Shown here: piece by piece, positions 3,133 to 59,185 of the stretch
How the letters are laid out: each line of letters opens with the position of its first letter
Numbering within the stretch: the stretch's first letter is position 1
IMG/VR virus record: IMGVR_UViG_3300037010_002464
Direction: 5' to 3' (one strand)
DNA from: a virus
Length of the DNA stretch: 64,000 nucleotides
The notes under the pieces: model-generated
What the model saw: the letters and a program-made list of their open reading frames with translations, nothing else
Told to the model about the DNA's origin: nothing
Databases searched by the model: none
Position numbers and translations under genes: made by a program

Positions 3133-4640
3133 AAGAGATCAACCACGGCGCCTCAGGCATTCCGGGCTACGGCAAGCAGTACGGCATGACCTTAGGCATT
3201 GTCAAGAATAACGCTGACCCTGCTCAGCAAGGACGGCTGCAAATTTACGTGCCCGCCTATGACGCAAACAGCTTTAATGTCGCTGACTTGCCTTGGGCTA
3301 CATACGTGTCGCCGTTCGGCGGCGTGACAGCCAACTTTGCTGTGGGGCCAGAGGGGGAGACCCTACCAGGCATCTCAGCCTACGGCTTCTGGGCGATCCC
3401 GAAGAACAGCGCCCAGGTGCTGGTCGGTTGCATTGACGGCAACCCTGACAACCGGTTTTGGGTCGGTTGCGTCTACATTCCTGAGCACAACCGGACCTTG
3501 CCTGCAGGCATTGACGGCGTTACGTCTGAGATTGACGAATCGGGTGTCTACCCGCAAAAGGACTTCCCGCACGCGCAAGAGAAGCTTCAGAAGGCAGGCT
3601 TGTGGAAGGGGTCAACCCACTTCAAAACGCGAGGCGGCTATGAGCGATCTGTCAGCCACCCATCTAACAAGAACAACAACAAGCCTACGGACAACGGCTA
3701 TGCGCCTAAGCCTCTCGAGCCAGCTAAAGCTGACTCACAGGCCGTCTCGCTAACCTCGCCTGGCCGGCACATGTTCGTGATGTCGGACGTAGATGAGCAT
3801 TGCCGTATCAGGCTGAAAACCACTAACGGCTCTCAAATCATCCTCGACGACACTAATGAGCGGATCTACATCTCGACGGCTGAAGGTAAGAACTACATCG
3901 AGCTCGACGAAGGTAACGGCAAGATCTACGTCTACTCCGACTCGAAGGTCAGCATTCGAGCCAAGAATGACCTCAACTTGTACTCCGACGAGAACATCAA
4001 CATCGTCGCGAACAAGCGCGTCCACATCAAGAGCGAGGAGCGCTCGGTTCACGTGACCGCCAAGTGCGATGTGACATTAAAGTCTACAAACGCCGACGTG
4101 TTGATCGCTGCAAGCCGTGACCTCAAGCTAAAGACCTTCAACGGCCCTCAAGCGGGCGCTCTCGGAGCTGAGACTGTCCAGACAAGCAACCCGCTCGACG
4201 TGATCTATCGTTGGCCTGAGAAGGGCGGGTCGGGTACGAGCAACATCGAGCTTGATTCAGCCGGCAAGGTCCAGTCGGTGAGCCAGCAAGGCACGTTGCT
4301 AACGGTGCGCGGCAGCGAGGGCTTCAACGTCAAGTCTTCGGGTTCCGTCAACTTGCAGGGCCCAAGTGTCAACCTGGCGTTCCCGAGCGTCAACTGGCAA
4401 AGCGGTGCGAGCATGAACCTCAAGGACACCGACAATAACTCTACCATCGTGGTTACAGGCGGTGCGAGCTCGTCCAGCGCTTACAGCGGTCATAAAGTCC
4501 TCTCTGTGCCGTACATGGGCGAGATGCCTCAGCAGGGCAAAGCAGGCGGCATGGTCAAGCCTGAGCATGAGTCATGGGTGCGTGATGAGGACTCAGCCTT
4601 TGCTAAGAACGAGCCTCGCAATTTTAAATACATTGGATGA
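3129..4640 (+). CDS. Baseplate central spike, gp5/VgrG OB-fold plus beta-helix
   Basis: GIVKNNADPAQQGRLQIYVP OB-fold, repetitive beta-helix segments, C-terminal PEHESW. Confidence 0.85.
   Translation: MKEINHGASGIPGYGKQYGMTLGIVKNNADPAQQGRLQIYVPAYDANSFNVADLPWATYVSPFGGVTANFAVGPEGETLPGISAYGFWAIPKNSAQVLVGCIDGNPDNRFWVGCVYIPEHNRTLPAGIDGVTSEIDESGVYPQKDFPHAQEKLQKAGLWKGSTHFKTRGGYERSVSHPSNKNNNKPTDNGYAPKPLEPAKADSQAVSLTSPGRHMFVMSDVDEHCRIRLKTTNGSQIILDDTNERIYISTAEGKNYIELDEGNGKIYVYSDSKVSIRAKNDLNLYSDENINIVANKRVHIKSEERSVHVTAKCDVTLKSTNADVLIAASRDLKLKTFNGPQAGALGAETVQTSNPLDVIYRWPEKGGSGTSNIELDSAGKVQSVSQQGTLLTVRGSEGFNVKSSGSVNLQGPSVNLAFPSVNWQSGASMNLKDTDNNSTIVVTGGASSSSAYSGHKVLSVPYMGEMPQQGKAGGMVKPEHESWVRDEDSAFAKNEPRNFKYIG
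4625..4630 (+). promoter_or_regulatory. Late promoter box TAAATA
   Basis: 6 nt before ATG 4637; the motif recurs before many genes. Confidence 0.5.
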
Positions 4641-4927
4641 AGCTCGTAGCCATCTTTGAAGATGAACGCCGTACCTTCGTGCTGAAATTTCAGCAGGAGC
4701 TGATTGACCTTGGGTGGGAGGTTGATGTCAAGCACCTAGGTGGCAACAAGTTCAAGCTCTCTGTGAGCAGGGATGAGCGGGCTCCTATGCTGCTATACGC
4801 CTTCAAGTACAACGAGCGAGAATGCATCGTTAGAAACGTCATCGATGACCGTACTCGAAGCTTCCACTCGGTCTATTTTTACAGCGGCCAAGAGTTTGCT
4901 GACTACGCACATGGGCATAACTTATGA
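4637..4927 (+). CDS. Small QQ-helix family protein
   Basis: MKLVAIFEDERRTFVLKFQQELID; ATGA overlaps on both sides. Confidence 0.75.
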   Translation: MKLVAIFEDERRTFVLKFQQELIDLGWEVDVKHLGGNKFKLSVSRDERAPMLLYAFKYNERECIVRNVIDDRTRSFHSVYFYSGQEFADYAHGHNL

Positions 4928-5301
4928 GCCAGTACAAGTTCTACCGTGGGTTCAGCACCAAAGGCTACGAGAATGTCGGCAAAGGCTTCACCCTCTACAA
5001 CGTCGAGCTGATCCAAGAGGACCTCTTCAACGAGTTGTTCACCGTCAAGGGTGAGCGAATCATGCAGCCTGACTTCGGCACGCGCATCCCGTTACTGGTC
5101 TTCGAGCCGAACGACACCGTCACCGCGGACATCTTGAAGGAGGACGTGCTGAAGGTCATCAACGGTGACCCCCGCGTGCGGCTGCAAGAGTGCGACATCA
5201 TCTCGGACATGGACAACCACCGGCTTATCTGCGTGGCTAAGATCCAATACATCGAGTTCAATGTCACTAAGGACTTGAGGATCGAGGTGGGTTCGCGATG
5301 A
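4924..5301 (+). CDS. Baseplate wedge protein gp25-like
   Basis: KGERIMQPDFGTRIPLLVFEP and DPRV motifs. Confidence 0.9.
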   Translation: MSQYKFYRGFSTKGYENVGKGFTLYNVELIQEDLFNELFTVKGERIMQPDFGTRIPLLVFEPNDTVTADILKEDVLKVINGDPRVRLQECDIISDMDNHRLICVAKIQYIEFNVTKDLRIEVGSR

Positions 5302-5966
5302 AGCTGCAGTCACTGCTTGAAGAAACTGATCGGTCAGCCATCCTAAAGGCTCAGCAAGAACTCGTCGAGCTCTTGCCTGAGAGTGACATTCGAATCGTCA
5401 AGATTGACCCAACGCAAGGCTATTGGAAAGAGGTCAACGATAAGGATGTAGGTCAGCCGCTGTCTAACATGGCCTTATGCATCGACAACAAGATAACCGT
5501 CGCGATGTTTTATTGGGACACGAATGCGGCTAGCGGCCGTGGATTTTGCAATGACGTAAATGAGTTTATGACGATGCAGCCATTGGCTAACTGGGTGGAG
5601 CAGCAACAAGAGCTTAAAGAGAGCGCCCGGTCAGAAGCGCTAGAATTTCAACAGTACCTCATTGATGAGGACTACGAGACAAAGCTTCAAGCGTCAAAGT
5701 GGGTGATGCGGCACAACTACGGGCCAACCGTCATTAAGCATCAAGAGACTGATGTTGAGGGCGGTATCCTGTTGCTCGCAAGAAAAGAGTCGGACAACCA
5801 TTGGACGACTGCTTACCATTTCCCAGACGATATGAGCATGGGCGTTGCCATGTATGTCGATGATCCAGGCAACAAGCACAAGAAAGTGGCCGGGCATACC
5901 AACTTTATCCACAGCGTCACGCTGAAGCCAGGAACAAATCTTAAGCGTTGGGCGATGCCAGCATGA
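5298..5966 (+). CDS. QQ-helix family protein, two units
   Basis: MKLQSLLEE...ILKAQQELVE; internal ALEFQQYLIDEDYE. Confidence 0.75.
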   Translation: MKLQSLLEETDRSAILKAQQELVELLPESDIRIVKIDPTQGYWKEVNDKDVGQPLSNMALCIDNKITVAMFYWDTNAASGRGFCNDVNEFMTMQPLANWVEQQQELKESARSEALEFQQYLIDEDYETKLQASKWVMRHNYGPTVIKHQETDVEGGILLLARKESDNHWTTAYHFPDDMSMGVAMYVDDPGNKHKKVAGHTNFIHSVTLKPGTNLKRWAMPA

Positions 5967-6733
5967 AGCTACTTGAACTGCTCGATACAGGCCCTAGCGC
6001 CCATACAACCCTGTCTCGCTTCGCTAAGGAGCTCGAGGCAAAGGGCTTCGAGGCCGAAGTCAAGTCCAGCTCAAAACCCGGAATTATAAACCGCTCGAAG
6101 CTTTGCATCGTGGTCAAGGGCTATGGGCTCAGGGACGTGATCAAGCTCTACAAGCCGCTGTTTGGCTGGGAGGACACGAGCACCTACTTCGTTGACTCGA
6201 AGCATGAGAAGAAGTTCCGGACCGTGCAGGAGCTTGTGGCTGTGCTGAAGGACAAGTACAAGCGCTTGCCTAAGTGCCTCTCCTACGTGCCGCCCGTGGT
6301 CAAGGAGGATGAAGGTGTCGTGCCAATAAAGCGGCGCATCTTGAAGTTTCAGCAGGACCTCGAGAACCTTGACTACGAGACTGTCAGCAACATCATCAAG
6401 ACCAAAGGTGTTTCCGCAGACGGCGCAACAACAGACAGGTTTGTGTTTGTCCTTGCGCCTGTGGATGATGGTCATCGGTTCTCTACCCTCTACCAGAAAG
6501 TCGTCATCATCATTGATGACCAGGACTCGTTGATGGTTCCCGGTCGTCAACCTCGCTCCAAGGTCGAGCAGCTTGTTAACGTAGAGATCTTCCACTGGGG
6601 CGAGACGTATGAGGAGCTGCTTAAGCGTGACTGGACGAAGCACTACCCTAAGCGCCCAATCTTCATCGAAGATGAAGCCGTGACTGGCAGGCAAGAGTCG
6701 CTTGACAACGCAATTGCCTACCTGACTAAATAA
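5963..6733 (+). CDS. QQ-helix family protein, two units
   Basis: Start reassigned to ATG 5963 (ATGA overlap): MKLLELLD; internal RRILKFQQDLENLDYE. Confidence 0.7.
   Translation: MKLLELLDTGPSAHTTLSRFAKELEAKGFEAEVKSSSKPGIINRSKLCIVVKGYGLRDVIKLYKPLFGWEDTSTYFVDSKHEKKFRTVQELVAVLKDKYKRLPKCLSYVPPVVKEDEGVVPIKRRILKFQQDLENLDYETVSNIIKTKGVSADGATTDRFVFVLAPVDDGHRFSTLYQKVVIIIDDQDSLMVPGRQPRSKVEQLVNVEIFHWGETYEELLKRDWTKHYPKRPIFIEDEAVTGRQESLDNAIAYLTK
6727..6732 (+). promoter_or_regulatory. Late promoter box TAAATA
   Basis: Overlaps the upstream stop; 6 nt before the gp6 ATG. Confidence 0.65.
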
Positions 6734-6738
6734 GCCCT

Positions 6739-9700
6739 ATGACTAACACACTCTTGTACGCAGCTGAGAGCTGGGATAAAGTCTATAAGGCTTTTGAGCA
6801 GATTAACTTCACCGCGTACGATTTCGATGCGGTCAAGCAGTCCCTGCTTGACTACCTGAAGCTGAACTATCCCGAGAACTTCAATGACTACATTGACAGC
6901 TCGGAGCTGGTAGCCATCATCGACCTGTTTGCCTATGTCGCCGAGCAGCACGCTTACCGTGTCGACATGGCTGCACATGAGAACATGCTGCCGACGGCCC
7001 GCCGGAAGCAGAATATCCTTCGCCTCGCCAACCTCGTCTCCTACTCAGCGTCACGTAACCTGCCGCTGCGTGGCTTTGTTAAGCTGACGTCTGTTGCATG
7101 CTCAGAGAACCTGGTCGACTCGCAAGGCAATAGCCTGACCAACAAGGTTGTCAAGTGGGCTGACCCGAACAATCCGCTGTGGCGTGAGCAGTTCCAGCTC
7201 GTCATGAACCGCCTGCTGGCTACTCAGCTTGGCGCGCCGTTTAAGTCGACACAGGTTGATGACATGATCATCCAGCAGTATGAGCTGCTGAACCTGCTCG
7301 AAGCTGAAGCCGACGGCACCTCCTTTGAGAACGGCACCCTGCCATTGTCTGTGAACGTCAACGGTCAAGAGCTCAAGTTTGAGCTGGTACCTGCCGACGT
7401 GGACGATTCCGGCGTCTTCGAGCGCAGCCCTGACCCGAATCAGCACTTCTCGCTTGTCTACAGCGATGATGGCTACGGTGACTCGTCAGACATGACCGGC
7501 TTCCTGATGTACTTGAAGCAAGGCGTCCTGCAGAAGCTGCCGTACACCTTCACCGACCTCCAGCCGAACCGTGTCATCGACGTTGACCTGCCGAATATCA
7601 ACGACGTTGACGTGTGGCTGCATGAGGTCGACACCGCAGGCAACATCCTCTACGAGTGGGAGCAGGTAGATGCCGTTAACGGCTCGAACCTTGCCTTCAA
7701 CACGATCAGCAACCAGAAGAAGTTCGAGGTCGAGACGCGCGAGCGTGACCAGATCCGGCTCGTCTTCGGCTCGGGCGACTATGCTGCGATCCCGCTCGGC
7801 TCGTTCAACATCTGGACTCGCACGTCTACCAGTGGTAGCCTGACGGTCTCAAAGACCGACATCGTTGACAGCTCGACTACCTTCGTCTACAACTCGAAGC
7901 AGGGCCGCCGTGAGACCTGCACGTTGACCTTCTCGTTGACAGCCGCGCTGCAAAACTCGGCCGACTCTGAGGACTTCGAGCATATCAAGCAAGCGGCTCC
8001 TGGTAACTTCTACACCCAGGACCGCATGGTCAACGGGCAGGATTACAACAACTTCCTGCTGCAAGACCCGTCTATCCTCAAGCTGAAGGCTGTCAATCGG
8101 ACCTTTGCCGGTCAGCCGAAGTACATCGAGTGGAATGACGCCTCCACCAAGTACCAGAACATCAAGCTGTTCGGTGATGACGGCCGCATCTTCTTTGACA
8201 TCGGAGCTGAAGCTACCTCCTACAAGGTATCGGCTCGGACGTTCATCGATCAGGTTCTCGAACCTGCGCTCTCAGAGCCAGGCATCTACAACCTAATCAG
8301 CTACGCTTTTAGCCAGTCGTCATTCCCGCTGTCTGACGCTTACATCCGGCCGCGCGTCTCTTTCATCGAGGACTATAGCCTAGGCTTGCAAGAGAAGACG
8401 GTCATCCAGGGCGCGCTCGACAGGCACTGGTACGGCGAGCCTGAACGGCTGGTCTACCTGGGCCCTGACCTGACTGAGACCACGCCGCCTCAGTCCGTCT
8501 TCGGCGTAGTCAACGCTGACAGCGACAAGCGGGTCTATGACTCAGCCCTGAAGCTCGTTACCTATGCATCGAGCGCGTACAGCTTAGCTCCGTGGCCAGG
8601 TGCGGTCTCGAGCGTTCAAAACTTTGTCAGCCGTCAGCGGCGCTTTGGCGTCAAGTTTGTGCCCGACCGTCCGTTCGCTTCGGCGCTCGTCATCAACCCG
8701 GCCAACGCTGTCAACGTGACCTCGACTGACTTCCTCACGGCGGCAAACATCTCACAAAGCGGCTTGGAGGATGTGTACACGATCGAAATCATCGATGCTG
8801 ACGTGGGTACATTCAGCGTTTACAGCAAGAAGCGCGGATTACAGCCGTCAGGCGTTGTAGGCGAAGCTTACTCGAACGGCTATATCAGCTTCGTTCTCGG
8901 AATCCCGAACGGCCAGTCAACTACCTTGGTAGTTGGTGACGCCTTCATCATCAAGCTGGAACGCGACTCGTTCACGGTCATGATGCCGACCATCTATAAG
9001 AAGAACTTGCTGGGCAAGTTCGAGCTGATCAACGAAGCTTCGCTCTCGGCCAACGCTGAAGCGCTGCCGTATGACGTGTCCGACTCCGTCAAGAGCTGGA
9101 TCATGATTGTTGAGCGCGTCGACGCGGCTGACGGCTCGCTTGACTCGTGGCGGCTGACTCGTCGTAACTACAAGCTGGCCCTTGAAAGCCCGACTTCAAA
9201 GTTCTGGTTCAGCCCAGGCACCTACCTCGTTGACCCTGAGACGAAGAAGCGCGTGTTTGACACCGTTAAGCTGCTGAAGTCCAACATGACCGCGGACGGC
9301 ACCGCAGCCCTGGGCGTGGACCAAAAGTACATGACTGTCGGCTCGTTCATCAACGCTGACGGTTCTACCAATGACTCAGCGCTGCTGCTAACGCCTACCG
9401 TGCTTGACGAAGCCGCTGCAGCTGCGGACGGCAGGCCGTATGCGTCCTTCCTCTTCCTCGACTTCGTTGCGGACAACAGCTACGTGTACTTCACCGCGGA
9501 CAGCGTGACCGGCAAGCTTACGCCTGCACCGAAGACCGCTTACCTGCAGAGCCTGACGTACGTCAATGACACCGCAGGCAGCATCGTGCGGAAGCGCGGC
9601 CGTGAGGCTCTCGACTTTGTCTGGATCCACTATGCGGCTCAAGAGAGCTTGATTGACCCAGCGCCGTCCAACATCATCGACATGTTTGTGCTGACGCGTG

Positions 9701-10218
9701 GCTACTACTCGCGCCTTGTGGACTATGTGCGAGGCACGTCAACCGTAGAGCCGGTACCGCCAACTCCGTTCGAGCTGCGCGCTACCTACCGCGGCCTGCT
9801 GACAAACAAGATGATCTCGGATACGACGATCCTTCACCCAGCTAAGGTCAAGCTGCTGTTCGGCTCGAAGGCGCTGCCTGAGCTTCGCGCAAAGGTCAAG
9901 CTAGTCAAGACGGCAAGCTCGCGCTTGGCAAATGACCAGCTACGTCTAAAGGTGCTCGACATCGTCAACAACTTCTTCTCGATCGACAACCTGGACTTCA
10001 GCTCGAGCTTCTACGCCACGAGCCTGATTTCGGTCATCCATAAGGAGCTGCCGCTTGATGTTGCGGCTGCGGTGTTGGTGCCTGAGTTCCCGACCAACTA
10101 CTACGGCGACCTGCAGCAGATCTCGGCCGGCGAGGATGAGGTTCTCGTCTCGGCTCTTGAGCTGAAGGACGTTGTCGTTGTAGAGGGCCTTGACCGTGCA
10201 ACGCTGAGGCAGAAGTAA
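6739..10218 (+). CDS. Baseplate wedge protein gp6-like
   Basis: FTAYDFDAVKQSLLDYLK...ENFNDYI, TARRKQNILRLA, QDRMVNGQDY, DPAPSNIIDMFVLT, KMISD motifs. Confidence 0.9.
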   Translation: MTNTLLYAAESWDKVYKAFEQINFTAYDFDAVKQSLLDYLKLNYPENFNDYIDSSELVAIIDLFAYVAEQHAYRVDMAAHENMLPTARRKQNILRLANLVSYSASRNLPLRGFVKLTSVACSENLVDSQGNSLTNKVVKWADPNNPLWREQFQLVMNRLLATQLGAPFKSTQVDDMIIQQYELLNLLEAEADGTSFENGTLPLSVNVNGQELKFELVPADVDDSGVFERSPDPNQHFSLVYSDDGYGDSSDMTGFLMYLKQGVLQKLPYTFTDLQPNRVIDVDLPNINDVDVWLHEVDTAGNILYEWEQVDAVNGSNLAFNTISNQKKFEVETRERDQIRLVFGSGDYAAIPLGSFNIWTRTSTSGSLTVSKTDIVDSSTTFVYNSKQGRRETCTLTFSLTAALQNSADSEDFEHIKQAAPGNFYTQDRMVNGQDYNNFLLQDPSILKLKAVNRTFAGQPKYIEWNDASTKYQNIKLFGDDGRIFFDIGAEATSYKVSARTFIDQVLEPALSEPGIYNLISYAFSQSSFPLSDAYIRPRVSFIEDYSLGLQEKTVIQGALDRHWYGEPERLVYLGPDLTETTPPQSVFGVVNADSDKRVYDSALKLVTYASSAYSLAPWPGAVSSVQNFVSRQRRFGVKFVPDRPFASALVINPANAVNVTSTDFLTAANISQSGLEDVYTIEIIDADVGTFSVYSKKRGLQPSGVVGEAYSNGYISFVLGIPNGQSTTLVVGDAFIIKLERDSFTVMMPTIYKKNLLGKFELINEASLSANAEALPYDVSDSVKSWIMIVERVDAADGSLDSWRLTRRNYKLALESPTSKFWFSPGTYLVDPETKKRVFDTVKLLKSNMTADGTAALGVDQKYMTVGSFINADGSTNDSALLLTPTVLDEAAAAADGRPYASFLFLDFVADNSYVYFTADSVTGKLTPAPKTAYLQSLTYVNDTAGSIVRKRGREALDFVWIHYAAQESLIDPAPSNIIDMFVLTRGYYSRLVDYVRGTSTVEPVPPTPFELRATYRGLLTNKMISDTTILHPAKVKLLFGSKALPELRAKVKLVKTASSRLANDQLRLKVLDIVNNFFSIDNLDFSSSFYATSLISVIHKELPLDVAAAVLVPEFPTNYYGDLQQISAGEDEVLVSALELKDVVVVEGLDRATLRQK

Positions 10219-10220
10219 GC

Positions 10221-10562
10221 ATGACAGCGACCAGGCGTGACTTGCTCGAGGTACAGCAGGAGCTCATTGAGCGTCTTGACTACCTCGATGTCAAGATGCT
10301 GCTTAACCTCACGCTTCAGCTAACGAGCTCGACTATCAAGCTGCTTGACTGTCGTCTCAAGCTAGTAGAAGTGCTGAAGCCTAAAGACCAGGATGACCCC
10401 AAGGTTTACCTCTTCGTGCTCGGCACGTCTAAGGCTCCGCCAATGGGTACGTTTACTCACACGCTTGCTGAGGTGTTTGACATTCTTAAGACCCTCAGCG
10501 AAAACCTAATGCTCGCGGACCGCAATCAACAGCTAGCCAAACGAGGCATTAGCAAGCTATGA
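10221..10562 (+). CDS. QQ-helix family protein without MKL leader
   Basis: RRDLLEVQQELIERLDY. Confidence 0.65.
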   Translation: MTATRRDLLEVQQELIERLDYLDVKMLLNLTLQLTSSTIKLLDCRLKLVEVLKPKDQDDPKVYLFVLGTSKAPPMGTFTHTLAEVFDILKTLSENLMLADRNQQLAKRGISKL

Positions 10563-10773
10563 AGCTCCAACATCTCCTTGAGTCAATGACCCGTAAGCTC
10601 GCTTTGGCTTTACAACAAGCCTTCATCGAAGACGGAACTGACGTAAAGCTGATGATTGTTCATGGCTTCAGTGCGCTCGCTTTGTCAAATGTGATGACTT
10701 GTATTCAACCGATACAAGCCACGGTGACGTAAAAGGTTGGGCTGAGGGGTTTGTGGACAACTGGAACTCTTAA
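10559..10773 (+). pseudogene. Internally deleted QQ-helix family gene
   Basis: MKLQHLLESMTRKLALALQQAFIEDG stops at 10732; another frame gives HGDVKGWAEGFVDNWNS* (stop 10773), resembling the C-terminus of 12668-13033. Confidence 0.6.
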
Positions 10774-10778
10774 ATAGC
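10771..10778 (+). promoter_or_regulatory. Late promoter box TAAATAGC
   Basis: TAAATA ends 5 nt before ATG 10782. Confidence 0.7.
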
Positions 10779-10781
10779 TCT

Positions 10782-12671
10782 ATGGCGACTCTCAATAACT
10801 ACACCATCAACTGGTCAAACGACTCCCTTAAGGCGCCGTTTACCTTGTCCGCTGGGTCAATCGATACCTCGACCACTTCGCTGGCATTGACAGGCAGGGG
10901 TGTTGAGAACTGGGGCGAGCATCTGGTCGAAAACCTGATGAAGCTCTTGGAGAGTTTCTCGAGCGGCGTTGCGCCTGCACACCCGACAGCTGGCCAGGTG
11001 TGGTATAATCCGGTGAATGATGAGCTGAAGATGTTCACTACAGGGGCTCAATGGGTTGTGATGTGGCCACACCCTGAGTTCAGCACGCCGAGCCCGAGCC
11101 CGACTCCAAGCCCTACCCCAACACCTACCCCATCTCCAAGCACCGACGTGACCTACGCCGCGCTTGAGTTTTCACCTACATCCGTCACTATCGGGGGCAG
11201 CACGACCCTGACCCTGACATTCACGTCGCCGACGGATCAAGTTGCGCCGGTCACCGTCACGCTGGTCAACAATGACGGTGGTCTCAACTCGGGAGCCGGC
11301 GGCCCTCACTCTACTGTAGTGCAGATCATTGGTGGCATCGGCTATCTGAACTACACGGTCAACACGGTCACAACGGGCTTCCACCCGATGCTAGCGACCG
11401 CTACGGGCAGCAACATCGTCGGCGGTTCACGTACAGCTAATGTCACCGTCGTTGCCTCCACGCCGTCGCCGACCCCAGGCACTCCTGTTGGTTCTGCTAT
11501 CACGTACACGTCGGCGACCTTTGCAGCAGGCCCGTACTCCGTGGGTCAGAATGCTGTCATCACGCTGCACTTCACATCAGCTGTTGACCAAACTGTTACC
11601 GTCAACACTATCCTGACTAACCCAGGCGGTGGGCTCTCGGGCGACTTTGACAACGCGATTGTAGGCTCGCTCAATATCACAGGCGGCGTGGGTACCTTGG
11701 CGTTCAACGTGACCGCAACTTCGACTGGCACGCACTCGCTATCCGCACAGGTCTATGGCATCACGCCGGCCGGCACGATCCGCTCAGACTCCATCGTTGT
11801 CAGCACGTCAGGTACGGCGCCGGTCATCACGGTGCAGCCAACCTCCGTCAGCACCAACTGGACGACTCCGGTTACGCTGTCGCTGACCGCTACGGGCATA
11901 GGCCCGATCAGCTACGGCTGGTCTAACGGCCCGCTTACCGGCGCACCGATTTTTGCAGGCGCTGACCTTAATGGCCTACAGACCAATGTCAGGCCGTCAG
12001 GCTTGGGTGGCGGTCAATGGTGGGTGCCAGCGTACAACAGCTCAGCCATCAGCTTCCCGGCTGGCTCCGCGGCTACGGGCGGCAGCACTAGCATGAACGG
12101 CGGCCCTCAAATCGGGTCGGGTTACTATTACCAAGCCGCTGTCTGGAACAACTTCGGCTACACGCTCAGCAACCAAGTGCAAGTCAACTACAACGGCGCA
12201 TTCGGCGGAGGCTCACCAAGCCCAGGTGGCGGGGGTGGCGGCGGATCTGTCAAGGTGACAGCCTACATGCCGTTCACCGAGAAGCAAGCAGGCAACCTCC
12301 AAGCTGGTGACCCGCTCATGCTGCTCGAACCGAACCAGCGCGAGTCCTCTATGGCAGGGCAGGTTGTCACGAACCGTATCAGCGAGCAAAACGTGCTAAA
12401 GCTGACCTCTGAGTCTGGCATCACGTTGACTTGCTCGGACAACACGCCGATGACTCTGCGCGACGGCTCAATGTGCAACTCGACCGACGTGCTAGGCAAG
12501 CAGCTGCCGGTGCAGGACAACAGCGGCTTCCGCTGGGAGACCATCACTTCTGTTGAGCCGCAAGGGCGTTGGTTGGTAGCAACGATCTACTGCTTAAACC
12601 AGTGCTATGCCGCAGGCGACGAGCCGGGCCGGTACATCTTCACGCACAACTTCATGGTGGTGAAGGAGTGA
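10782..12671 (+). CDS. Virion fibre/appendage: N-terminal anchor, PS/PT linkers, Ig-like repeats, C-terminal Hint domain
   Basis: Anchor WGEHLVENLMKLLESF..P..P..GQVWYN; APVITVQP Ig-like start; poly-Gly then S-V...FTHN Hint domain (12246-12650). Confidence 0.75.
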   Translation: MATLNNYTINWSNDSLKAPFTLSAGSIDTSTTSLALTGRGVENWGEHLVENLMKLLESFSSGVAPAHPTAGQVWYNPVNDELKMFTTGAQWVVMWPHPEFSTPSPSPTPSPTPTPTPSPSTDVTYAALEFSPTSVTIGGSTTLTLTFTSPTDQVAPVTVTLVNNDGGLNSGAGGPHSTVVQIIGGIGYLNYTVNTVTTGFHPMLATATGSNIVGGSRTANVTVVASTPSPTPGTPVGSAITYTSATFAAGPYSVGQNAVITLHFTSAVDQTVTVNTILTNPGGGLSGDFDNAIVGSLNITGGVGTLAFNVTATSTGTHSLSAQVYGITPAGTIRSDSIVVSTSGTAPVITVQPTSVSTNWTTPVTLSLTATGIGPISYGWSNGPLTGAPIFAGADLNGLQTNVRPSGLGGGQWWVPAYNSSAISFPAGSAATGGSTSMNGGPQIGSGYYYQAAVWNNFGYTLSNQVQVNYNGAFGGGSPSPGGGGGGGSVKVTAYMPFTEKQAGNLQAGDPLMLLEPNQRESSMAGQVVTNRISEQNVLKLTSESGITLTCSDNTPMTLRDGSMCNSTDVLGKQLPVQDNSGFRWETITSVEPQGRWLVATIYCLNQCYAAGDEPGRYIFTHNFMVVKE

Positions 12672-13033
12672 GGATTCAGCCGCTGCTAGAGAACATCAGC
12701 ATGAAAAAGCTCATGCTGATGTTCCAGCAAGACATCGCTGAGCGAGACCATGAGTTCAAGGTCTACTCTCAAGATGGGTGCTACATCGGCTGGGCGCCTG
12801 CATTGCAATCAACCGACATGGCCGTTGCAAACACAGTCGTGCTGCAACCGAATGACAACTACATGTACTATATCAACCATGATATAGTGGCTGAGCATGG
12901 CGTCAAGTGGGCGATCAGCAACGAGAGCGAGCACCGCGGCGCAACGATGCTGCCCGCGGTAGTCCATGGTGATGACGAGGATGCCATCGCTAAGTGGATC
13001 GAGACCGAAGTTGACCAGTGGGAGTTTGACTGA
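12668..13033 (+). CDS. QQ-helix family protein
   Basis: Start reassigned to GTG 12668 (GTGA overlap): MRIQPLLENISMKKLMLMFQQDIAE. Confidence 0.7.
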   Translation: MRIQPLLENISMKKLMLMFQQDIAERDHEFKVYSQDGCYIGWAPALQSTDMAVANTVVLQPNDNYMYYINHDIVAEHGVKWAISNESEHRGATMLPAVVHGDDEDAIAKWIETEVDQWEFD

Positions 13034-13060
13034 GGCTTTCCAAGCCATGGGTGCACTAGG

Positions 13061-13085
13061 TAAATAGAGGATCCACAAGATCCTC
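13061..13085 (+). promoter_or_regulatory. Late promoter TAAATA followed by hairpin GAGGATC-cacaa-GATCCTC
   Basis: Box at 13061-66; perfect 7-bp stem ending 3 nt before ATG 13089. Confidence 0.6.
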
Positions 13086-13088
13086 ACG

Positions 13089-16000
13089 ATGGCAAACAAG
13101 AACCTTGATCTAGCAACGCTGCTCCCTAAGCAGTACCAGAACCGCACGATCACGACCCTCATGAGGGCCTTGTTCAACAATCACCTGAGCAAGGACGAGT
13201 CTGTCATCCTCCACGGCTTTGTCGGCAGCGAAGCTGCAGCACAGTCCTCAGACATCTACATCCGCGAAGCTGACCTCGAGCGGCAGGTCAATCAGCTCGC
13301 ACCTGTCCTCTACAGCAAGCAAGGCACCGAAGAGCGCCTGACTACATGGCGCGAGCTCGTGCAACGCCTCGTCACGTTAGACGTGCCCTATGACAGCGTC
13401 GCTGACTGGCTGACGGTCGAGAGCCTCAACTTTGTCCCGTTCATCGACCTTGACAAGTTTGCTAACTTTGACGAGTATGTGTGGGTAGGCAAGTGGTTGG
13501 TTGCTCACCCAGAGCTGCCTTGGAACGACATCGGCTTCACTACGGCCTCTGTAGCCTCCTTGCAAGCCGCAAACCCGACACAAGCTGCTGACTACTATGT
13601 TATCGCTCGCTCGGCTCTTTCAGGCAACACGCCGGTGGCCCCTTACCCAGGTCTGGGCGCCTGGTCTGACTGGGCTCTGGGCAACATGTGGCTCCACAAG
13701 GCTGACGCTCAGGCTTTCCAGCTGGCGTACCCGGTCCTTAGCTCGAATGACATCGTGCAGGCTTTACGGCCGATCCTCGAGTTTGAGAGCAACCTCAAGC
13801 TTAACCTCTACGCAACCTCTACGGGCGAGCCTGCCGACAGCGGTACGCCTAGTCCGCAAGTCAAGACCGCGCCTAACCAACCGCCGTTGTTCGACCTCTA
13901 CTACGCTAACGGCGATCACTCTGCTTACATCTCGAGCGGCTTCTTCTACAAGGAGGCCGCTGATCAGCCGATTGACGCAGCCCTGGGTAGGCGGATCGTG
14001 CGAGACGCTGCCGCCGACCTGACATTTGGCCACAGTTTCACCTCGCCGACCGAAGACCGTCCGCTGTTCTTCAAGCGTTACGCTAGCGGCTCATTTAGCC
14101 TGGCTTCCGTCTGGCGTGGGGCCGCGCTGATCGGCCAAGAGTACGTCAAGTATGAGACAGCCGGCGCGCTAATCAACGCTGACAAGCTGCAAAACTTCGA
14201 GAGCTACTATTGGACAGGCGTTGCCGACGGTGCGTTGCCGGCTTACAACCCTATCGGGCAAGCCGAATATACGGTCATCGAAGCTGGCGGAACGAGCGGC
14301 TGGTCGCTCGACAACCGGTGGAAGCACTCAAGCCAGCTGACAACGGCAGAGCGCCTCAACTACTTGCAAGCCCAACGGCCCATCATCGAGTTCAATGCTG
14401 AGCTAGAGTCTCAGCTCCTAGGAGCGAAGACGGCGCTCGGCCAGCTGCCTACTTTCCGAACATATGCTCACGATGAGAGCACCGGCTTGTACATGCCACC
14501 GTCAACCATCAATGACAAGCTGACGGACGCTTACACAGGCGGCACGCTGTTTGTTAACCTTGATCAGCTCGAGCTGACTAAGGGAGCCATGACTACGGCT
14601 GCTGAGCAAGCAAGCCTGCTTGGCACGGTGCGGGGCGTCCGCTTCGCTCAGACTCTGCTGACAGGCTACTACGACAACGCTACAGACGGCACCTCGTTCC
14701 CGTACTTCATCCGCGAGTACGAGAACATTGGCGCTGGCAACGGTCAGCTCTCGACGCTCAACGTTGACGCTAATGCGCTCCCGCAAGTTATTCAGCTAAC
14801 CGGCCATGCTGGCGGCACGACCTTTGACGTGTACAGCACCGTGCTAGGAGCCCTGCCTACATTGACGGTGGACACACCGTACACCGTTGGCGGCACGACC
14901 TTCTCGGTAGTCTCGGGCACCACAGCCTTTGACGCCACCTCGCGCTTCAGCTTCGATATCAAGTCGAGCGCTTTCAAGCGCGCTAGCTTGTATGTCAAGC
15001 TGGGCGACTCATACCGTACCGTGACAGACCCGCTTGGCTACCTGTCAAACTCAGCTCTTGAGGATCGGCAAGTAAGCGTGAGCCCGGCAAGCGCCTCGGG
15101 CGCTTGGAAGTGCCCGATGCCGATGTTCGGTAACCTCGACTCGACGCTCTCGACTAGCTTCAAGCAAGGTGACTTGTACTCGCACTTTGTCTCGATCATC
15201 GGAGCCCAACCCGGCCTTGAAGGTCTGGCTTCAAGCCGAAACAACTGGCGCAACCTGTCAAAGGACTATAGCAAGGGTGGCTTGCTGAAGATCTTCAATG
15301 ACAGGCTTCAGCTCCTCTTGGGCATGCTGTGCCAAGATTCGGCTGATCCTATTGCGTTGCTTGACTTTGGCCGCGACGCTTACGTCAACGTGCTCAACCG
15401 GACTCGTGAGTTTGTCGAGCAGGAGCTCATCAGCCGTGTGACGGCAGGTTCAGCCGCTTTCTTGTCAGCTCCAGGCCCAGTTGACATCGACACTTACAAG
15501 CAGCTGCGCGCTTACCTCGAGCGCAGGTCAAGCGTGGTAGATGCGAGCGAATCGCTCGTGGACGATGAGGTTAACTCGCCGTTCATGACTAACAGCATGA
15601 GCCTGAAAGCCTTGACGCTGACAGCGCCGTACCTGGGCTTGGCGCCGAAAGTAGCGCCTGGCGTGCTCGTAGAGCCTGACCAGAACAGGGCTATGTTAGT
15701 GCATCATGACGGTCACAAGTCGAGCCTTCCAACGATTGACTTTTCGGTGCTTAAGGGCCTGGTAACGAAGCGTTTTAAGCGGTCGAACGGCCAAGAAACG
15801 CCTGGATTTGTGGGTGGTCCCGTTCCGCCGCAAGCTCCGTTTGCTCGTCAGCTATGGCTCGACCTGTCAGCTGAGAATCTCTACCTGTTCGACGTGGTCT
15901 CTGACATCGGCGATCTGCCTGCTACCGCGCTCAATGGACAGTTCTCCTACAATCGGCTGACGGGTGAGACCTGGCAGTGGAACGGCTCTTGGGTAGCCCT

Positions 16001-19000
16001 GGGTTCAGAGCAGCACGCGCAAGAGGCGCCATGGCGCCTGCTCGACCTCGCGTCGACCTTGACCGCGTTGTTGCTCGAGCTCGAGACAGAGCTCTACAAT
16101 GCGTGCCCGGCAAGCAGCACAGCCTTCAGCTACACGCCGCTGGAAAGCTCATCGCGTTGGATGCCGTTGATGGAGAAGGAGTTCTTGGGCTTCTGCTCGA
16201 AGTACGGCATTCCTGACCCATACGATCCGCTCTACAACCCGGCAGACCCGTTCACGTGGTCCTACTACAACTCGGGTTGGGGTCCAGCCTCGGCTTGGCA
16301 AGGCGTCTACCAGTATGTCTACGGCACGTCGCGTCCTGACCTCTACCCGTACATCTCGGTTGAAGAGTCTGAAGCCGCTTTTATGAATGACCTGGTGGTT
16401 GCAGGCTTCGTTCCGCCAGGCACGACTACCTGGGACATCAGCTACTGGACAAGCATCGACGTGCAAGACAATGTCAAGGCGAAGCTTAACTCGCTGGGCA
16501 AGCCTGTGCAGCTGTCGGTTGACACGACCAATGGTAAGCTGCTGCCGCCGTACGCTTTTGGCAACGCCGAGCAGCTCATGATCGCTCCTCCGCCGACGCC
16601 TAACCGCCGCTACTACTACGGCGAGCTTGGCCCGATTGAGGCCATGTGGACAGACACTCTCGAGTATGTCACGTCAAAGCTCAAGACCTACTTCAGGCTT
16701 AGCCCACTGAAGTTCATCAGCTTGTGCTGGGGTGACCCGCTTGACAAGGTTGACGGCTACGAGCTTGTCAGGCCTCTCGGCCGCAAGGCTCACATTGTTG
16801 ACGCGCTGATTCACGGCGAGCCCATCAATCGGACGACGTTGACGCCGACATCCCTGACGGTCACCATGATCGCGCCGCCACCAACGCCGGTAACCTACCT
16901 CATTGAGGTCGCCAGCGCACGTAATAGCATCGTGCGAGTTTCGCAAGTTGGCTCGTTCGCCTTTGCTTTCTACCCAGCAAATGCAATCCACCTCGACGGC
17001 TATGCCACATGCCAGCTCGTTGTGCCGCGTGACGGCTTGAACCTAGGCGACACGCTAACTGTGGCCATCAGCGAGCTTGCAGTCGCGACTGTTACCCTGG
17101 CTCACGCTCCGTTCAAGCTCGAAGGCTTGAGCCAGCTGTATGCGCACTACCACGCCGCCAACTCGCTCGAGCTGAGCTACTCGGCTGACCGCGCTCGCCT
17201 GGCCGCTTGGACACCTAAGCTTGCATACCGCTTCAACACGCTTGTCGACACTGATGAGCTGAGCGTCAAAGCCGAGACCGCGGTTGTTGACTCATCAGGT
17301 TATAACGTGTACCTGAAAGAGACCGAGCTTCAGTCTGTGGCGTGGCTTACAGGCTTGAAGGTTACCCTGCTGCAAGCAGGCAGCACGCAGATCGTCAACG
17401 GTCGGATCGTCCCTGCAAAACTCCCTACGGGCTCTCGCGGTGATGACTGGGTCTACCGCGTTGACCTGACCAACCCGAAGCATCCGGCTCTACAGTGGTA
17501 CGAGTATGACTCGGCTACCTACGAGACCTTCTATGCTCTAGGAGGCAAGGGAAGCCTGGATGAGTGGAAGCGTTATACCCAACGTACCACACTTCGTACC
17601 GTTTATGGCCCGTTCATGGTTAAGGGGCTGCAAGCTCTGACCACGTTCATCTTCGGCGTAGCTGACCGGCTGGCTGAGCTCGGCTATGTCTTCAATGACG
17701 AGCAGGACCCGGTCATCGACCCGACAAACGGCCGCTTGATCGGCTGGCAGCTCCTGGTTGAACAGCTGATTGACGCACAGTTCAACAGTCCGACCAACGG
17801 CATGGCCTTTGTGCTCGCGCCGTTTGAGCGCCGCTTCTGGTTCAAGGCTAAGTACGGCTATATCTCTGACCTGTCTAAGCCAGGCGCGCAGAACCTGATC
17901 CCAGGCTTGTACACGGTTGACGGCCAACGCGCTCCGAAGGGTTCGTTCCGCGTCTTCCGTGATGACGGCAACGCATCGGTCACCAGCGACGTGCCGTTGG
18001 CCGGCGCTATGGTAGCGACAAGTGTGTTCGAGCACGTGATCGTGTTTGAAAATGTGGTCGGCGACGTGCTTCTTAACGAGCCGTTCCTCAATCAGCATGT
18101 CTCGCGCCTGTTCTTTGAAGGCTTCAAGCAAGCCACGCCTACAGGCCGTCCGGTCTATGGGGGCAAGTACTTGGTGGGCAATAAGATGCGCACCAACATG
18201 GAGGGCTCCGTTCAACAGCTGGGTAACCTCTATGACATCGGCGCGCTGAAGAGCGAAGAGCTGTTTGACCGTGCAAGCTCGCTGGTCAGCTTTGACCGCA
18301 AAGACTATCACTCAGACCTTGGCACCACCCTGCCGACGCAGCTGCAGTTCTGGCGGGGCATGCTGAAGAGCAAGGGCACCAACCGTGCCGTCAGCTCCTT
18401 CGTCAACTCTTCGCTGTTCCGTTCGGCTCTGATCGACGAGCTTTGGGCGTACAAGGTCTCTGAGTACGGTGACCTGCGCCGCGCCGTTAAGGTCGAGCTG
18501 AATGTTCGGACCAATGACATGGTGAGCGAGCGCGCTAACTACCTGCTGCTCGAAGCCGACGAGCTGGCCTATGTCAACGAGCTCGCTGCCATCGGCGGCT
18601 ATGACATGACGATCTACGACCAGATCCCGTTTGACATGTTCACGCTGTACTCGCATGAGCAGATTGTTAACATGGACCTGCTCGATCCGCGTGGCTGCAT
18701 CATCATTAAGCCTGACGATGAGGATCGTTGGAACAGTTTTAGCGACTTGGGCTCCATCAGCTACCTGAAGGCGCAAATCGTTGCAACCATGCAGGTGCAG
18801 GTCACCGGCTCTGAGCTGCTAACTGTGCGCGATGCTGACGGCCGAGAGGTGCTGGCTGACGCATTTGAGATCGTAGACATCGGCGTAACGAGCGGCGCAA
18901 ACGTGTACCAGACCCCGGTCTTGGACATCACGTCCTACATGAAGAGCGGCTCGAAGGTCTACCGCGAAACGGGCGATTATGTCACAGGCACTAACCCACC

Positions 19001-39293: not shown

Positions 39294-39724
39294 GATGCGG
39301 TCAGCTCATTAATGCGAGCCCAGATATCATCGGCTACGAATGAGTTACCGTATTGGTTCCAGGCATAGTCGCCGCCGTAGTCTCGCACGTAGTACTCGAA
39401 TGCGGCAGTATAAGAGGGGAACTCAAGCTGCGCGTCCTCAAGATATCCGCGCACCACCTTGCCGCCGGTAACCTTGACGTCAATCTTCCGTTTCTTGTAG
39501 TCGGCCTCAATTTCAGCTCGAGCTCGAGGTGCTGACTTGACGCTTTGATCAGGCAGCCCGATCTCATCCTCTGTGGCATACATCGGAGTGGTATCATCCT
39601 CTACCGATGCTTCAAGCTTACCATCATTTGTGATCTTGAAGCTCCAGCCATCCGGAAACGTGTCGATGAAGTCCTGTTGAGCCTTTAGCAAGTCAGCCTT
39701 GGATAAGATTTCAGCCAGCTTCAT
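39290..39724 (-). CDS. QQ-helix family protein, tandem paralog of the downstream gene
   Basis: MKLAEILSKADLLKAQQDFIDTFPDGWSFKI; ATGA overlaps. Confidence 0.75.
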   Translation of the reverse strand: MKLAEILSKADLLKAQQDFIDTFPDGWSFKITNDGKLEASVEDDTTPMYATEDEIGLPDQSVKSAPRARAEIEADYKKRKIDVKVTGGKVVRGYLEDAQLEFPSYTAAFEYYVRDYGGDYAWNQYGNSFVADDIWARINELTAS

Positions 39725-42163: not shown

Positions 42164-42827
42164 TGCGCCGCCTGTTGAGCTAATAGCGGCCGTCGATAAC
42201 CTCTCAGACCCAGCAGCAGTTGCTGCTTGGGTTGAGAAGCAGCTTGCCTTCGATGCTAAGAGCGGCAGTCCCTTTTTCCTCACCTACACCAATCACACAG
42301 TTGGTGATGATGGACGTGTCTCATTAGCGGGTAATGTCAACGCTCAGGCATTGCCTCAACGCCTGAAGCCCTACAACCGTCTCCCTGTCAACTTCAAGAT
42401 TGTCAGCGGCGCTGTCTGGACCAACCCTGACATCATCTCCTTTGAGGGATTTCCTGAAGTCGTCGACTTCATTAACGTCTCATCATCAGCTATCCCTAGC
42501 TGGAACGGCTGTCCTCGTCGAGTTTCTGCGTTGGTGCTCAATGAGCAGCTTGCCCAGCGTGTTGACCCCAAGCACGCTGCGGGCAGCGCGGCAGAAACTA
42601 TCAACTTGGGCTACCTTGAAAAGCCCACATGCTTGCCTAGACTGGCGTTCTTCCCTCAGCTCCAAAGTCTCGCATTCACCTGCGCGCCTGAGATCCTTGA
42701 TGAGAAGCAGGTTGAGGAGCTAAAGGACTTCTTCATCCCCCGCCTGAAGGTTGCGTTACGCAATCGAGCAGGTGTTCTTCGCTTAGAGCAGGAGCTAATC
42801 GATGCAGGCTATGAAGAGTGGGTTTAA
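42141..42827 (+). CDS. LRR-like phage protein with a C-terminal QQ-type helix
   Basis: LPVNFKIVSG, ISFEGFPEVV, PSWNGCPRRV repeats; ends VLRLEQELIDAGYEEWV; start uncertain. Confidence 0.6.
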   Translation: MPLPSSHDAPPVELIAAVDNLSDPAAVAAWVEKQLAFDAKSGSPFFLTYTNHTVGDDGRVSLAGNVNAQALPQRLKPYNRLPVNFKIVSGAVWTNPDIISFEGFPEVVDFINVSSSAIPSWNGCPRRVSALVLNEQLAQRVDPKHAAGSAAETINLGYLEKPTCLPRLAFFPQLQSLAFTCAPEILDEKQVEELKDFFIPRLKVALRNRAGVLRLEQELIDAGYEEWV

Positions 42828-43149
42828 GAGCGAGTGCCGTCAACTCTTCTTGAAGTTTCAGCAGATCGGGATTGATGATGAAATGAAGCTCGCATCGGCT
42901 ATACCGGCTGTTGCTTGCTTCCAAGCCAAGTTTGAGGACTCAAACCCAATGGTTGTTCAGACCTTGATCCTCACCATCTATGATCGCGTTGATGACTGCA
43001 TCGTAGTCGTATGCTATGGCCCTCGTAAAGGCGATGAGCAGTACGGCTCAATGAAGTATCGACGCAGCTCTGCCATGGCAGAGGGTGCCATCGTAAAACT
43101 GCTTGAATGGAAGCAGGATCAATTCTCTTTCCAGATTGAAATCAATTAG
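42811..43149 (+). CDS. QQ-helix family protein
   Basis: CRQLFLKFQQIGIDDE. Confidence 0.6.
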   Translation: MKSGFKSECRQLFLKFQQIGIDDEMKLASAIPAVACFQAKFEDSNPMVVQTLILTIYDRVDDCIVVVCYGPRKGDEQYGSMKYRRSSAMAEGAIVKLLEWKQDQFSFQIEIN

Positions 43150-55034: not shown

Positions 55035-55036
55035 GC

Positions 55037-57955: not shown

Positions 57956-57970
57956 CATGGAGACATCATC

Positions 57971-58501
57971 ATGAAACAGCTTCTATGCTTCTTTGCTCTA
58001 ATCTTCGCCCTTACCGCTCACGCAGACAATGTCGAGTGCCCTGCAGCCACGCTTGTGGCTGATCAAACTCTCGCTGAGTACACAATGCAAGTCGCGACCG
58101 CTGACGGTCATAAGGAGCCAAAGTACGTCGTCGGCGTGCTAAAGGTTGAGAGCAAGCTTGGAGAGAGCAAGCACCGTGTTGTTAAGCAGGGTAGCAGCAC
58201 CTTCTATGGCGTTGGGCAAGTCTCAATCGGCGCCGCAAAAGCCGTCATGAAGCGCTTCTCCGACCTCTGGAACGACTTTGACACCCGCAGCGATGAAGAA
58301 CTGAAGGCCCGGCTGATCTTAGATGACCGGTTCAACGCTAGCGTCACAAGCAAGTACCTGCTAATGATGGGAGTCAACAAGAATGCGGCAAAGGGGATCG
58401 CCGCTTACAACCTAGGTGAAGGAGGCGTACAGCAGGTCAACGCTGCCACACATCCTTATACCCGCAAGGTCATGACAGCCGCTGCTGCATACAAGCTATG
58501 A
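57971..58501 (+). CDS. Secreted lytic transglycosylase (SLT-like)
   Basis: Signal peptide ending AHA; KVES, YGVGQV, AYNLG motifs. Confidence 0.8.
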   Translation: MKQLLCFFALIFALTAHADNVECPAATLVADQTLAEYTMQVATADGHKEPKYVVGVLKVESKLGESKHRVVKQGSSTFYGVGQVSIGAAKAVMKRFSDLWNDFDTRSDEELKARLILDDRFNASVTSKYLLMMGVNKNAAKGIAAYNLGEGGVQQVNAATHPYTRKVMTAAAAYKL

Positions 58502-58835
58502 CCCATTCAAGCACCGAGTCCTGCTTGTAGATTGCGGCCAGCCACTGAACATCGCCGTTACCTGTGCGAATGCACAGCATTCGATCAGGCTGCGCTGACG
58601 GCCAAAGCATAACATAGGCTGAGGAGACGGCTGGCTTGCTAATTGCCAGCACAGCCGCATTCGCATCGAAGAACACAGGGTTGATACGATGGCGTGCTGC
58701 GTTAAGAGCGCCAGCTTCGATGCTGGAAAGCCTAGTAATTTTTACAGTCACGTCGTCAAGGCTATCAATGATGTTCTGCTGGAGCGTCAACAGGATGCGG
58801 CGCTGCTCGTTCTCAAACAATGCTTGTAGCTTCAT
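58470..58835 (-). CDS. QQ-helix family protein
   Basis: MKLQALFENEQRRILLTLQQNIIDSLD. Confidence 0.75.
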   Translation of the reverse strand: MKLQALFENEQRRILLTLQQNIIDSLDDVTVKITRLSSIEAGALNAARHRINPVFFDANAAVLAISKPAVSSAYVMLWPSAQPDRMLCIRTGNGDVQWLAAIYKQDSVLEWVIACMQQRLS

Positions 58836-59185
58836 TACCAGCTCTTAATCGGTGTTGATCCGTCGATGAGCCGCGCCAGAGCTTCGTCATAAGAAGCGAC
58901 CTCCACACGACTGTTTGAGACGCTATACAGCGATTTATCGCGTAAGGGTAAGTAACTTCTGAGGTGATGCCCAAGTTGAACTTGAACAATCGCGTCAAAG
59001 CCAAGCTCCCTTACTCGTCGTTGAGCGTCTTCATCATGGTCTGACCTAGCCCAGTGTTTGAATGCCTTGTCAACCGGCACGATCTTAACCTTGACGCTGT
59101 CAGGCGCGTCATCAATGAACCGCTGTTGAAGCTTTAGCAGCTGTTCTTTAGACGATGATTCAAGCAATGACTGTAGTAGCTCCAT
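58835..59185 (-). CDS. QQ-helix family protein
   Basis: MELLQSLLESSSKEQLLKLQQRFIDDAPD; minus-strand TAAATA at 59190-95. Confidence 0.75.
   Translation of the reverse strand: MELLQSLLESSSKEQLLKLQQRFIDDAPDSVKVKIVPVDKAFKHWARSDHDEDAQRRVRELGFDAIVQVQLGHHLRSYLPLRDKSLYSVSNSRVEVASYDEALARLIDGSTPIKSW

Follow-up and report, generated by a model that had tools for sequence, protein, structure and literature searches.

A helix-loop-strand module heads a new, lineage-specific family of small proteins lodged among the structural genes of a giant myovirus

We analysed a window of 64 kb from an uncultured giant myovirus (IMG/VR record IMGVR_UViG_3300037010_002464), in which small genes with otherwise dissimilar products carry the same conserved element. 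An earlier, sequence-only reading of this DNA had described about 13 unrelated small proteins sharing one short helix, L-x-x-QQ-x-x-I-[DE]. A profile hidden Markov model (HMM) built from the copies identified exactly 12 genes with 14 copies in the window, leaving out a thirteenth site that is not significant, and the conserved element proved to be a module of about 44 residues and not nine, continuing some ten residues past the acidic position. The module heads a repeating unit of about 90–140 residues, which may stand alone in a gene, occur in pairs of neighbouring genes or be repeated two to three times within one polypeptide. The module-headed proteins form a new family without a database match, and both the module and the repetition of the unit are real.

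PHROG profiles identified in the window a gp5-like hub/lysozyme (3129-4640), a gp25-like wedge protein (4924-5301) and a gp6-like wedge protein (6739-10218, E 6e-250), all on the plus strand, as well as collagen-like fibre genes and genes for a family B DNA polymerase, a primase, a DnaB-like helicase and a ClpP-like protease. Closest to the gp6-like protein was that of Ralstonia phage RsoM2USA, at 43% identity over 99%, and those of XacN1, PA5oct, CBB, GAP32 and Atu_ph07 came next; the phage is grouped with the T4-like phages of the Rak2/XacN1/RsoM2USA type, not with the phiKZ group. No near-identical DNA was found for the window in the phage collection. Together with the gene for a giant protein of 2843 residues (13089-21620, plus strand), the gp5, gp25 and gp6 genes make up a conserved structural block (3129..21620, plus strand) into which six genes of the family are inserted.

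The first of these six plus-strand genes, g4637 (4637..4927, 96 residues, one unit with its module at residues 1-46), stands between the gp5-like and gp25-like genes, overlaps each of them by 4 nucleotides and has a TAAATA box whose end lies 6 nucleotides ahead of its ATG. Between the gp25-like gene and g5963 lies g5298 (5298..5966, 222 residues), again joined by 4-nucleotide overlaps, which has two units with modules at residues 1-48 and 102-149. The gene g5963 itself (5963..6733, 256 residues, two units) is directly upstream of the gp6-like gene; its first module (residues 1-45) is degenerate, with SRFAKELEA, its second (residues 116-159) has LKFQQDLEN, and its orthologues are the relative P0021 and parts of P0013 and P0023. 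Beginning 2 nucleotides after the gp6-like gene, g10221 (10221..10562, 113 residues, one unit) is without the first 8-9 residues of the module and overlaps by 4 nucleotides with g10559 (10559..10732, 57 residues), which has a complete module and a truncated body and is likely a decaying copy. The sixth gene, g12668 (12668..13033, one unit), overlaps by 4 nucleotides with the gene for a structural protein of 629 residues and lies upstream of the gene for the giant protein. Its start is most likely the GTG at 12668, which gives 121 residues, because a full module and the 4-nucleotide overlap result from it and because the orthologue P0004 begins MRLLPLLES.

Beyond the block, g25566 (25566..26090, plus strand, 174 residues) has one module at residues 1-44 followed by a long body, and overlaps the gene upstream by 4 nucleotides. 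On the minus strand, g39724 (39290..39724, 144 residues, one unit with its module at residues 1-40) also has a 4-nucleotide overlap with its upstream gene, while g39255 (38911..39300), the body of which is a full-length paralogue of g39724, has a frameshift in the module, in which MKLD... precedes ...KKRLLKMQQDFID in a different frame; judged from this arrangement, g39255 would be a decaying copy or a gene restarted at an internal methionine. The one-unit gene g42802 (42802..43149, plus strand) encodes 115 residues, or 112 from the ATG at 42811, and overlaps by 26 nucleotides with the end of the gene at 42141. Finally, two one-unit genes on the minus strand, g58835 (58470..58835, 121 residues) and g59185 (58835..59185, 116 residues, orthologue P0006), overlap by 1 nucleotide, and a TAAATA box ends 4 nucleotides before the ATG of g59185. 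The members range from 57 to 256 residues, with isoelectric points from 4.2 to 9.3 and no common charge signature. The gene map of the window thus confirmed that members lie on both strands and include adjacent pairs. The frameshifted g39255 and the truncated g10559, together with the insertions relative to RsoM2USA described below, are signs of birth and death in the family.

The site that was left out belongs to a gene of 228 residues (42141..42827, plus strand), the product of which had been said to carry the motif at its extreme C-terminus. Its last 22 residues (VLRLEQELID...) do resemble the motif, and since their match to the module HMM (E 0.26-0.7) is that of the next best open reading frame (ORF), this thirteenth site is not a demonstrable member. 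The C-terminus may be what is left of a family copy that was fused or has decayed. The surrounding interval (41507-42827) consists of the ClpP-like protease gene, with matches to head-maturation and ATP-dependent protease PHROGs, and downstream of it the 228-residue gene, which has no family match.

The strict motif L-x-x-QQ-x-x-[LIVF]-[DE] occurred 10 times in a crude set of 82 proteins from the window, as compared with 0.084±0.29 expected (maximum 2) from 1000 shuffles of residues within each protein, and every N-terminal site listed earlier was present at the coordinates given for it. Counted in six frames, there were 11 matches in 52k residues of the window, and in unrelated phage loci there were 6 (2 of them independent) in 475k ORF residues. 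Alignment of the flanks placed the motif at the centre of the module, in which an amphipathic helix is followed by a P-D loop and a V-K-I strand and which has the consensus M1 K2 L3 .. L6 L7 E8 ... R12 ... L16 K17 [FL]18 Q19 Q20. L22 I23 [DE]24 .. P27 D28 .. V31 K32 I33. The basic residues noted before the motif correspond to R or K at position 12 (83%), and the V-K-[ILV] strand described after it is real and lies within the module. The module HMM separated the members cleanly (E 1e-8 or better) from all other ORFs of the window (0.26 or worse).

After Met1, the information is highest at polar residues, namely Q19 (3.6 bits), Q20 (2.7), R12 (2.5), D28 (2.2) and D/E24 (2.1), L16 having 2.3 bits, and the hydrophobic residues of the helix follow the i+3/i+4 spacing of an amphipathic helix. 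Position 22 holds L/F/I and position 23 I/V; at position 24, D is found in 50% and E in 29% of the copies, and the residue that follows is L, E, R, D, S or T. Codons at the conserved residues were mixed (TTG, CTA, CTG and CTC for Leu16; CAG and CAA for both glutamines; GAT, GAC, GAG and GAA at position 24). Conservation through synonymous codons of this kind indicates selection on the protein.

Outside the module, the proteins have little in common. In all-against-all BLAST, only the first 30-50 residues were similar, the pair g39724/g39255 excepted. When the bodies were compared by phmmer with module and strand removed, matches were found only within orthologue groups, except in one clade in which the bodies of unit 1 and unit 2 still matched at 20-26 bits, and hhalign among 26 body clusters gave no pair above 30% probability. 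The earlier description of a constant element on unalignable bodies was therefore supported, there being no detectable similarity of paralogues between clusters. Orthologous bodies from different phages are 45-80% identical, indicating that they are functional and not junk. In 5 of 6 pairs of orthologues or paralogues, the module had diverged less than the body; between g59185 and P0006, for example, the module is 97% and the body 66% identical.

The element is, however, not the bare helix tag on unrelated proteins that had been envisaged, but a helix-loop-strand of 44 residues at the head of a unit that recurs inside polypeptides. In multi-module proteins the modules are spaced by 85-135 residues, and single-module proteins have 96-144 residues; the two-unit proteins of the window and of the relatives align in register across both modules. 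The metagenomic relative P0020 (518 residues) has modules at residues 290-322 and 370-392, after an N-terminal region of 285 residues that resembles phage nucleotidyltransferases of the Pol-beta type by ESM language-model features (0.96, 210/256) and has no Pfam, PHROG or PDB match. It is the only case of units joined to an enzyme-like domain, and no counterpart of this domain was found in the window. The internal copies and the architecture of P0020 together show that the module heads a unit the size of a small domain and need not be N-terminal.

Neither the members in the window nor their relatives had a sequence match past any threshold in Pfam, PHROG or PDB, the best match of the PDB profile search being to the helix-loop-strand of a WNK2 CCT-like domain, which is not significant (E 0.4). 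When 1.84 billion representative proteins were scanned exhaustively with HMMER, there were 24 matches at E 1e-3 or better, consisting of 8 proteins of the window, 14 metagenomic proteins with one to three modules and 2 false positives. The latter, P0009 and P0010, were driven by ankyrin repeats and were rejected as relatives. Word-seeded searches found only the window proteins and P0004, P0006, P0015, P0028 and P0029, of which P0004, P0006, P0028 and P0029 were additions to the relatives from the exhaustive scan, and a search seeded with a messy full-length alignment of 25 sequences gave nothing further. Some relatives are encoded on contigs of 62 and 142 kb. With the 49-position module profile, the sensitivity of which is limited, no candidates were found in RsoM2USA, XacN1, PA5oct or Atu_ph07. 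Distant phage loci retrieved with a gp25-like query served as a negative control, and a search for the module in about 85 other phage loci came up empty but for one marginal ORF. The family is thus lineage-specific, expanded and narrowly distributed.

The marginal ORF lies on a 164-kb IMG/VR contig (L078:372-566, the same as L087) and encodes 58 residues beginning MAKFQQRIIDNNDAVKQRIRIV that match the module weakly (E 8e-4 in a set of 16k ORFs). A scan of the contig gave this ORF alone, and marginally (E 0.013), and it is either a distant relative or a product of chance.

A comparison with RsoM2USA by tblastn showed how the genes of the family are placed. In that phage the order is a 551-residue protein, gp5, gp25, gp6 and the giant protein, with no gene between them, while in the window genes of the family occupy the gp5|gp25, gp25|gp6 and gp6|giant protein junctions. 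Since these junctions are uninterrupted in RsoM2USA, the genes are accessory insertions; the units are also absent from the syntenic block of XacN1, PA5oct and Atu_ph07, as of RsoM2USA. Seven junctions in all consist of 4-nucleotide overlaps with baseplate or structural genes, in agreement with the earlier remark that the genes are wedged among baseplate genes in this way.

The hexamer TAAATA occurs 24 times in the window as compared with 6.1 expected, a four-fold enrichment, and such boxes end 4-7 nucleotides before the start codons of gp6, of other structural genes and of g4637 and g59185. They precede structural or late-looking operons at 4625, 6727, 10771, 24988, 26133, 40875 and 46717 on the plus strand and at 40534 and 59190 on the minus strand, and none of these nine starts has a Shine-Dalgarno-like sequence. 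Each of the nine boxes stands before the first gene of its operon, and none was seen before the replication genes of the window. The arrangement suggests that the boxes are T4-type late promoters giving leaderless or near-leaderless mRNAs, with the downstream genes coupled through ATGA overlaps. Most members either overlap a late gene by 4 nucleotides or follow such a box, and from the boxes and the coupled overlaps we infer late expression for most of them.

Other observations concern the structural genes around the insertions. The 629-residue protein (10782-12671), for whose gene the corresponding block of RsoM2USA offers no equivalent, and a protein of 523 residues (27702-29273) have only their N-terminal 90 or so residues in common (phrog_15511 / phrog_14394); this is a second case of a constant N-terminus with a variable C-terminus, and is typical of the attachment domains of fibres or spikes. 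A protein of 385 residues (23401-24558) has strong collagen-like or tail-fibre PHROG matches, and upstream of its gene lie those for the giant protein and for a 591-residue protein without a match.

Neither the structure predictions nor the complex prediction proved informative. AlphaFold2 models of g59185 (15 sequences, predicted local distance difference test score (pLDDT) 54) and g5298 (8 sequences, pLDDT 36) were too poor to use, and a fold search with the g59185 model gave nothing above noise (best E 0.29 in BFVD; best Z 6.7 across VIA, where the best value by chance is typically 7-8). Two-layer alpha/beta sandwiches of the frataxin/CyaY type were among the matches at Z 4.3-5.3, which is below noise and was obtained with the pLDDT 54 model. 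They are alike in topology only, with an N-terminal helix, an antiparallel sheet and a C-terminal helix; the family has no sequence similarity to them and no membership is claimed. Frataxin itself carries its conserved functional ridge on helix 1 and strand 1. The complex prediction for g59185 with its neighbour g58835 (score 0.00, the fold of the partner being uncertain) speaks neither for nor against an association.

A constant N-terminal element on variable bodies is a known general kind of arrangement in giant phages, and it is the family that is new and its docking function that we propose. We tentatively favour, at somewhat less than an even chance, the reading that the module is a structured docking element for a common late or virion partner, to which the T4 capsid-targeting sequence (CTS) would be analogous and not homologous, and for which the conserved leaders of the SPN3US head paralogues are a further precedent. 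Because the module alone survives between paralogues, and because its strongest conservation falls on polar residues that would line one face of the helix, it would be an interaction surface common to all units. The module comprises one long amphipathic helix (with E8, R12, Q19, Q20 and D/E24), the P-D loop and the V-K-I beta-strand, and would most likely serve to dock every unit to a single partner that the phage itself encodes and makes late in infection, candidates being components of the virion, of the prohead or of baseplate assembly. The module may in this way anchor many different proteins to one phage component, with the variable bodies supplying different activities or targets, and as a structured element it would probably be kept in the folded unit and not be a short, cleaved propeptide. 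Several observations weigh against such a function. A conserved N-terminal helix and first strand are also what would be expected of a divergent family with a single fold, the units are all about as large as one small domain, and in the low-confidence AlphaFold2 models helix and strand sit inside an alpha/beta unit. In addition, one orthologue pair shows the reverse pattern of conservation (module 65%, body 80%), and the late expression of most members is itself suggested by gene arrangement and a promoter-like box.

The bodies being all of the size of a single small domain, a common fold with the helix as a structural part is possible, and the alternative that follows is an ordinary family of fast-diverging single-domain paralogues in which helix and first strand are the best-kept part of the core and each paralogue, in place of a common partner, has a target of its own, possibly in the host. 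We consider this somewhat unlikely. The tandem spacing fits single domains, and the similarity between unit-1 and unit-2 bodies in one clade indicates that whole units duplicate. In the low-confidence models, g59185 and unit 1 of g5298 have a similar order of elements (helix, strand, further strands and a C-terminal helix), generic alpha/beta sandwiches appeared at Z 4-5, and an ending with an aromatic residue, Ser/Thr and a short helix was found in 3-5 of 26 units against 0.4-1.5 expected, a marginal result of a post hoc test. On the other hand, it is the polar residues that are conserved most rather than the hydrophobic residues of a core, no similarity of bodies between clusters was found even when profile was compared with profile, tryptophan is not enriched near the unit ends (P = 0.19), and the models are too poor to trust, with fold matches that are below noise.

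The closest parallel among known systems is the CTS of T4. The T-even internal proteins are a diverse set with only the leader in common (PMC3012670), and in T4 the internal proteins IPI, IPII and IPIII as well as Alt carry a CTS (Mullaney and Black 1996, as reviewed in PMC9026906, PMC3012670), a leader of 10-19 residues in which Asp at the last position blocks cleavage but not targeting (PMC9026906). According to NC_000866, IPII and IPIII begin MKTYQEFIAE and IPI begins MKTFKEFTST. In both systems a conserved N-terminal element is borne by small proteins of a T4-like myovirus that are unrelated in other respects and turn over rapidly, the genes are dispersed, and late in T4 and probably here, and a hydrophobic-x-acidic triplet closes the conserved helix. 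In contrast to the CTS, the module of the window extends past the acidic residue into a beta-strand, recurs internally and in tandem, has Asp as commonly as Glu, and shows no sequence homology.

A T4-type targeting propeptide, which would direct the proteins to the prohead core and be cut after [DE]24 by the prohead protease, so that the bodies are ejected with the DNA as anti-defence or takeover effectors, is in our judgement unlikely; it gives a specific form to the idea of the sequence-only reading. The architecture of a conserved leader on a hypervariable set is that of the T-even internal proteins (PMC3012670, PMC9026906), large paralogue families are known in the heads of giant phages (PMC5694885), the baseplate genes are T4-like, and the gene context is late-looking. 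The hydrophobic-x-[DE] triplet at positions 22-24 also resembles the gp21 site [LI]-x-E, and D-I-A-E of g12668 resembles F-I-A-E of T4. However, the module HMM scored no more than 2.2 bits against IPI, IPII and IPIII of T4 (NC_000866), and never at the N-terminus. The module has 44 residues and not 10-19, with P27, D28, V31, K32 and I33 conserved past the putative cut, and copies are found internally at unit spacing and after a 290-residue domain, so that cutting would leave each body attached to the helix of the next unit. About half of the copies have Asp at position 24, the residue that in this place blocks gp21 processing in T4 (PMC9026906), a non-small residue follows [DE]24 where the T4 leaders have Ala after Glu, and the isoelectric points reveal no common charge signature.

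It is quite unlikely that the module serves as an address label for loading cargo, by which dozens of different small proteins, joined in relatives by an enzyme, would dock to one virion component (the prohead core or the baseplate/tail) and be delivered into the host with the DNA. Such a system would be a far larger, independently evolved and structurally different counterpart of the CTS/internal-protein system of T4. Two other known systems bear comparison. The head proteins of SPN3US include a paralogue family A (gp53/gp54, PF12699) and a family B of 20 members, and phiKZ has inner-body proteins (PMC5694885); gp53 and gp54 have identical N-termini and bodies that are 34% identical, which the authors liken to a CTS (PMC5694885). 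These are likewise large paralogue families of plastic copy number in giant phages, while the units of the window are much smaller (about 100 residues) and match neither PF12699 nor any other family. The payloads of contractile injection systems, Pdp1/Pnf of PVC and Afp18, have N-terminal signal peptides or packing domains (PMC10097599, PMC11495950, bioRxiv 10.1101/2023.11.13.566157). There, too, a constant N-terminal region of about 50 residues is found on diverse cargo, beside contractile-tail or baseplate genes. These signals, however, require an AAA ATPase of the Pvc15 type and load an empty tube, while the tail tube of a phage is normally occupied, and the likeness is one of analogy only.

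That the module is a self-association interface, through which units would pair by helix-helix and strand-strand contacts, appears very unlikely. It would explain the adjacent gene pairs and the chains with two units: 8 of the 12 genes adjoin another member, two genes have two units each, this two-unit architecture is kept in relatives, and the hydrophobic residues of the helix have a heptad-like spacing. Tandem duplication or insertion hot spots would explain the adjacent pairs as well, however, and four members are single.

An alternative raised by the sequence-only reading, that the element is the leader of a ribosomally synthesized and post-translationally modified peptide read by a protein at 29316 resembling the recognition element of such systems, has next to no probability. 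Only the presence nearby of a multi-enzyme operon (29316-36168, ten genes), which that protein heads, speaks for it. Neither Pfam (E 0.01 or better) nor PHROG gave a match for the protein itself (29316-30023). The members do not look like precursors, being of globular size (57-256 residues), in some cases with several units and in relatives with a fused enzyme-like domain, and are scattered on both strands over 55 kb (4.6 to 59 kb) without adjoining that operon. A chance motif, or a recombination or regulatory signal in DNA or RNA at the gene starts, which share ATGAAGCT..., is refuted by the more than 100-fold enrichment over shuffled proteins, by synonymous codon variation at every conserved residue and by the internal copies far from gene starts.

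Read conservatively, the results describe a new family with unusual conservation of a polar helix face and first strand, and show how the baseplate operon of giant myoviruses, rigid in other respects, is invaded by small accessory genes. Should the module be a common docking element, as we tentatively favour, it would mark a whole set of accessory proteins that the phage lineage deploys together, and provide a portable handle, such that a fusion of the module to a reporter could reveal both partner and destination. This would be a second, independently evolved case of a constant address with variable cargo, which has so far been worked out experimentally only for the CTS of T4, and with 14 modules in 64 kb it would be expanded well beyond it.

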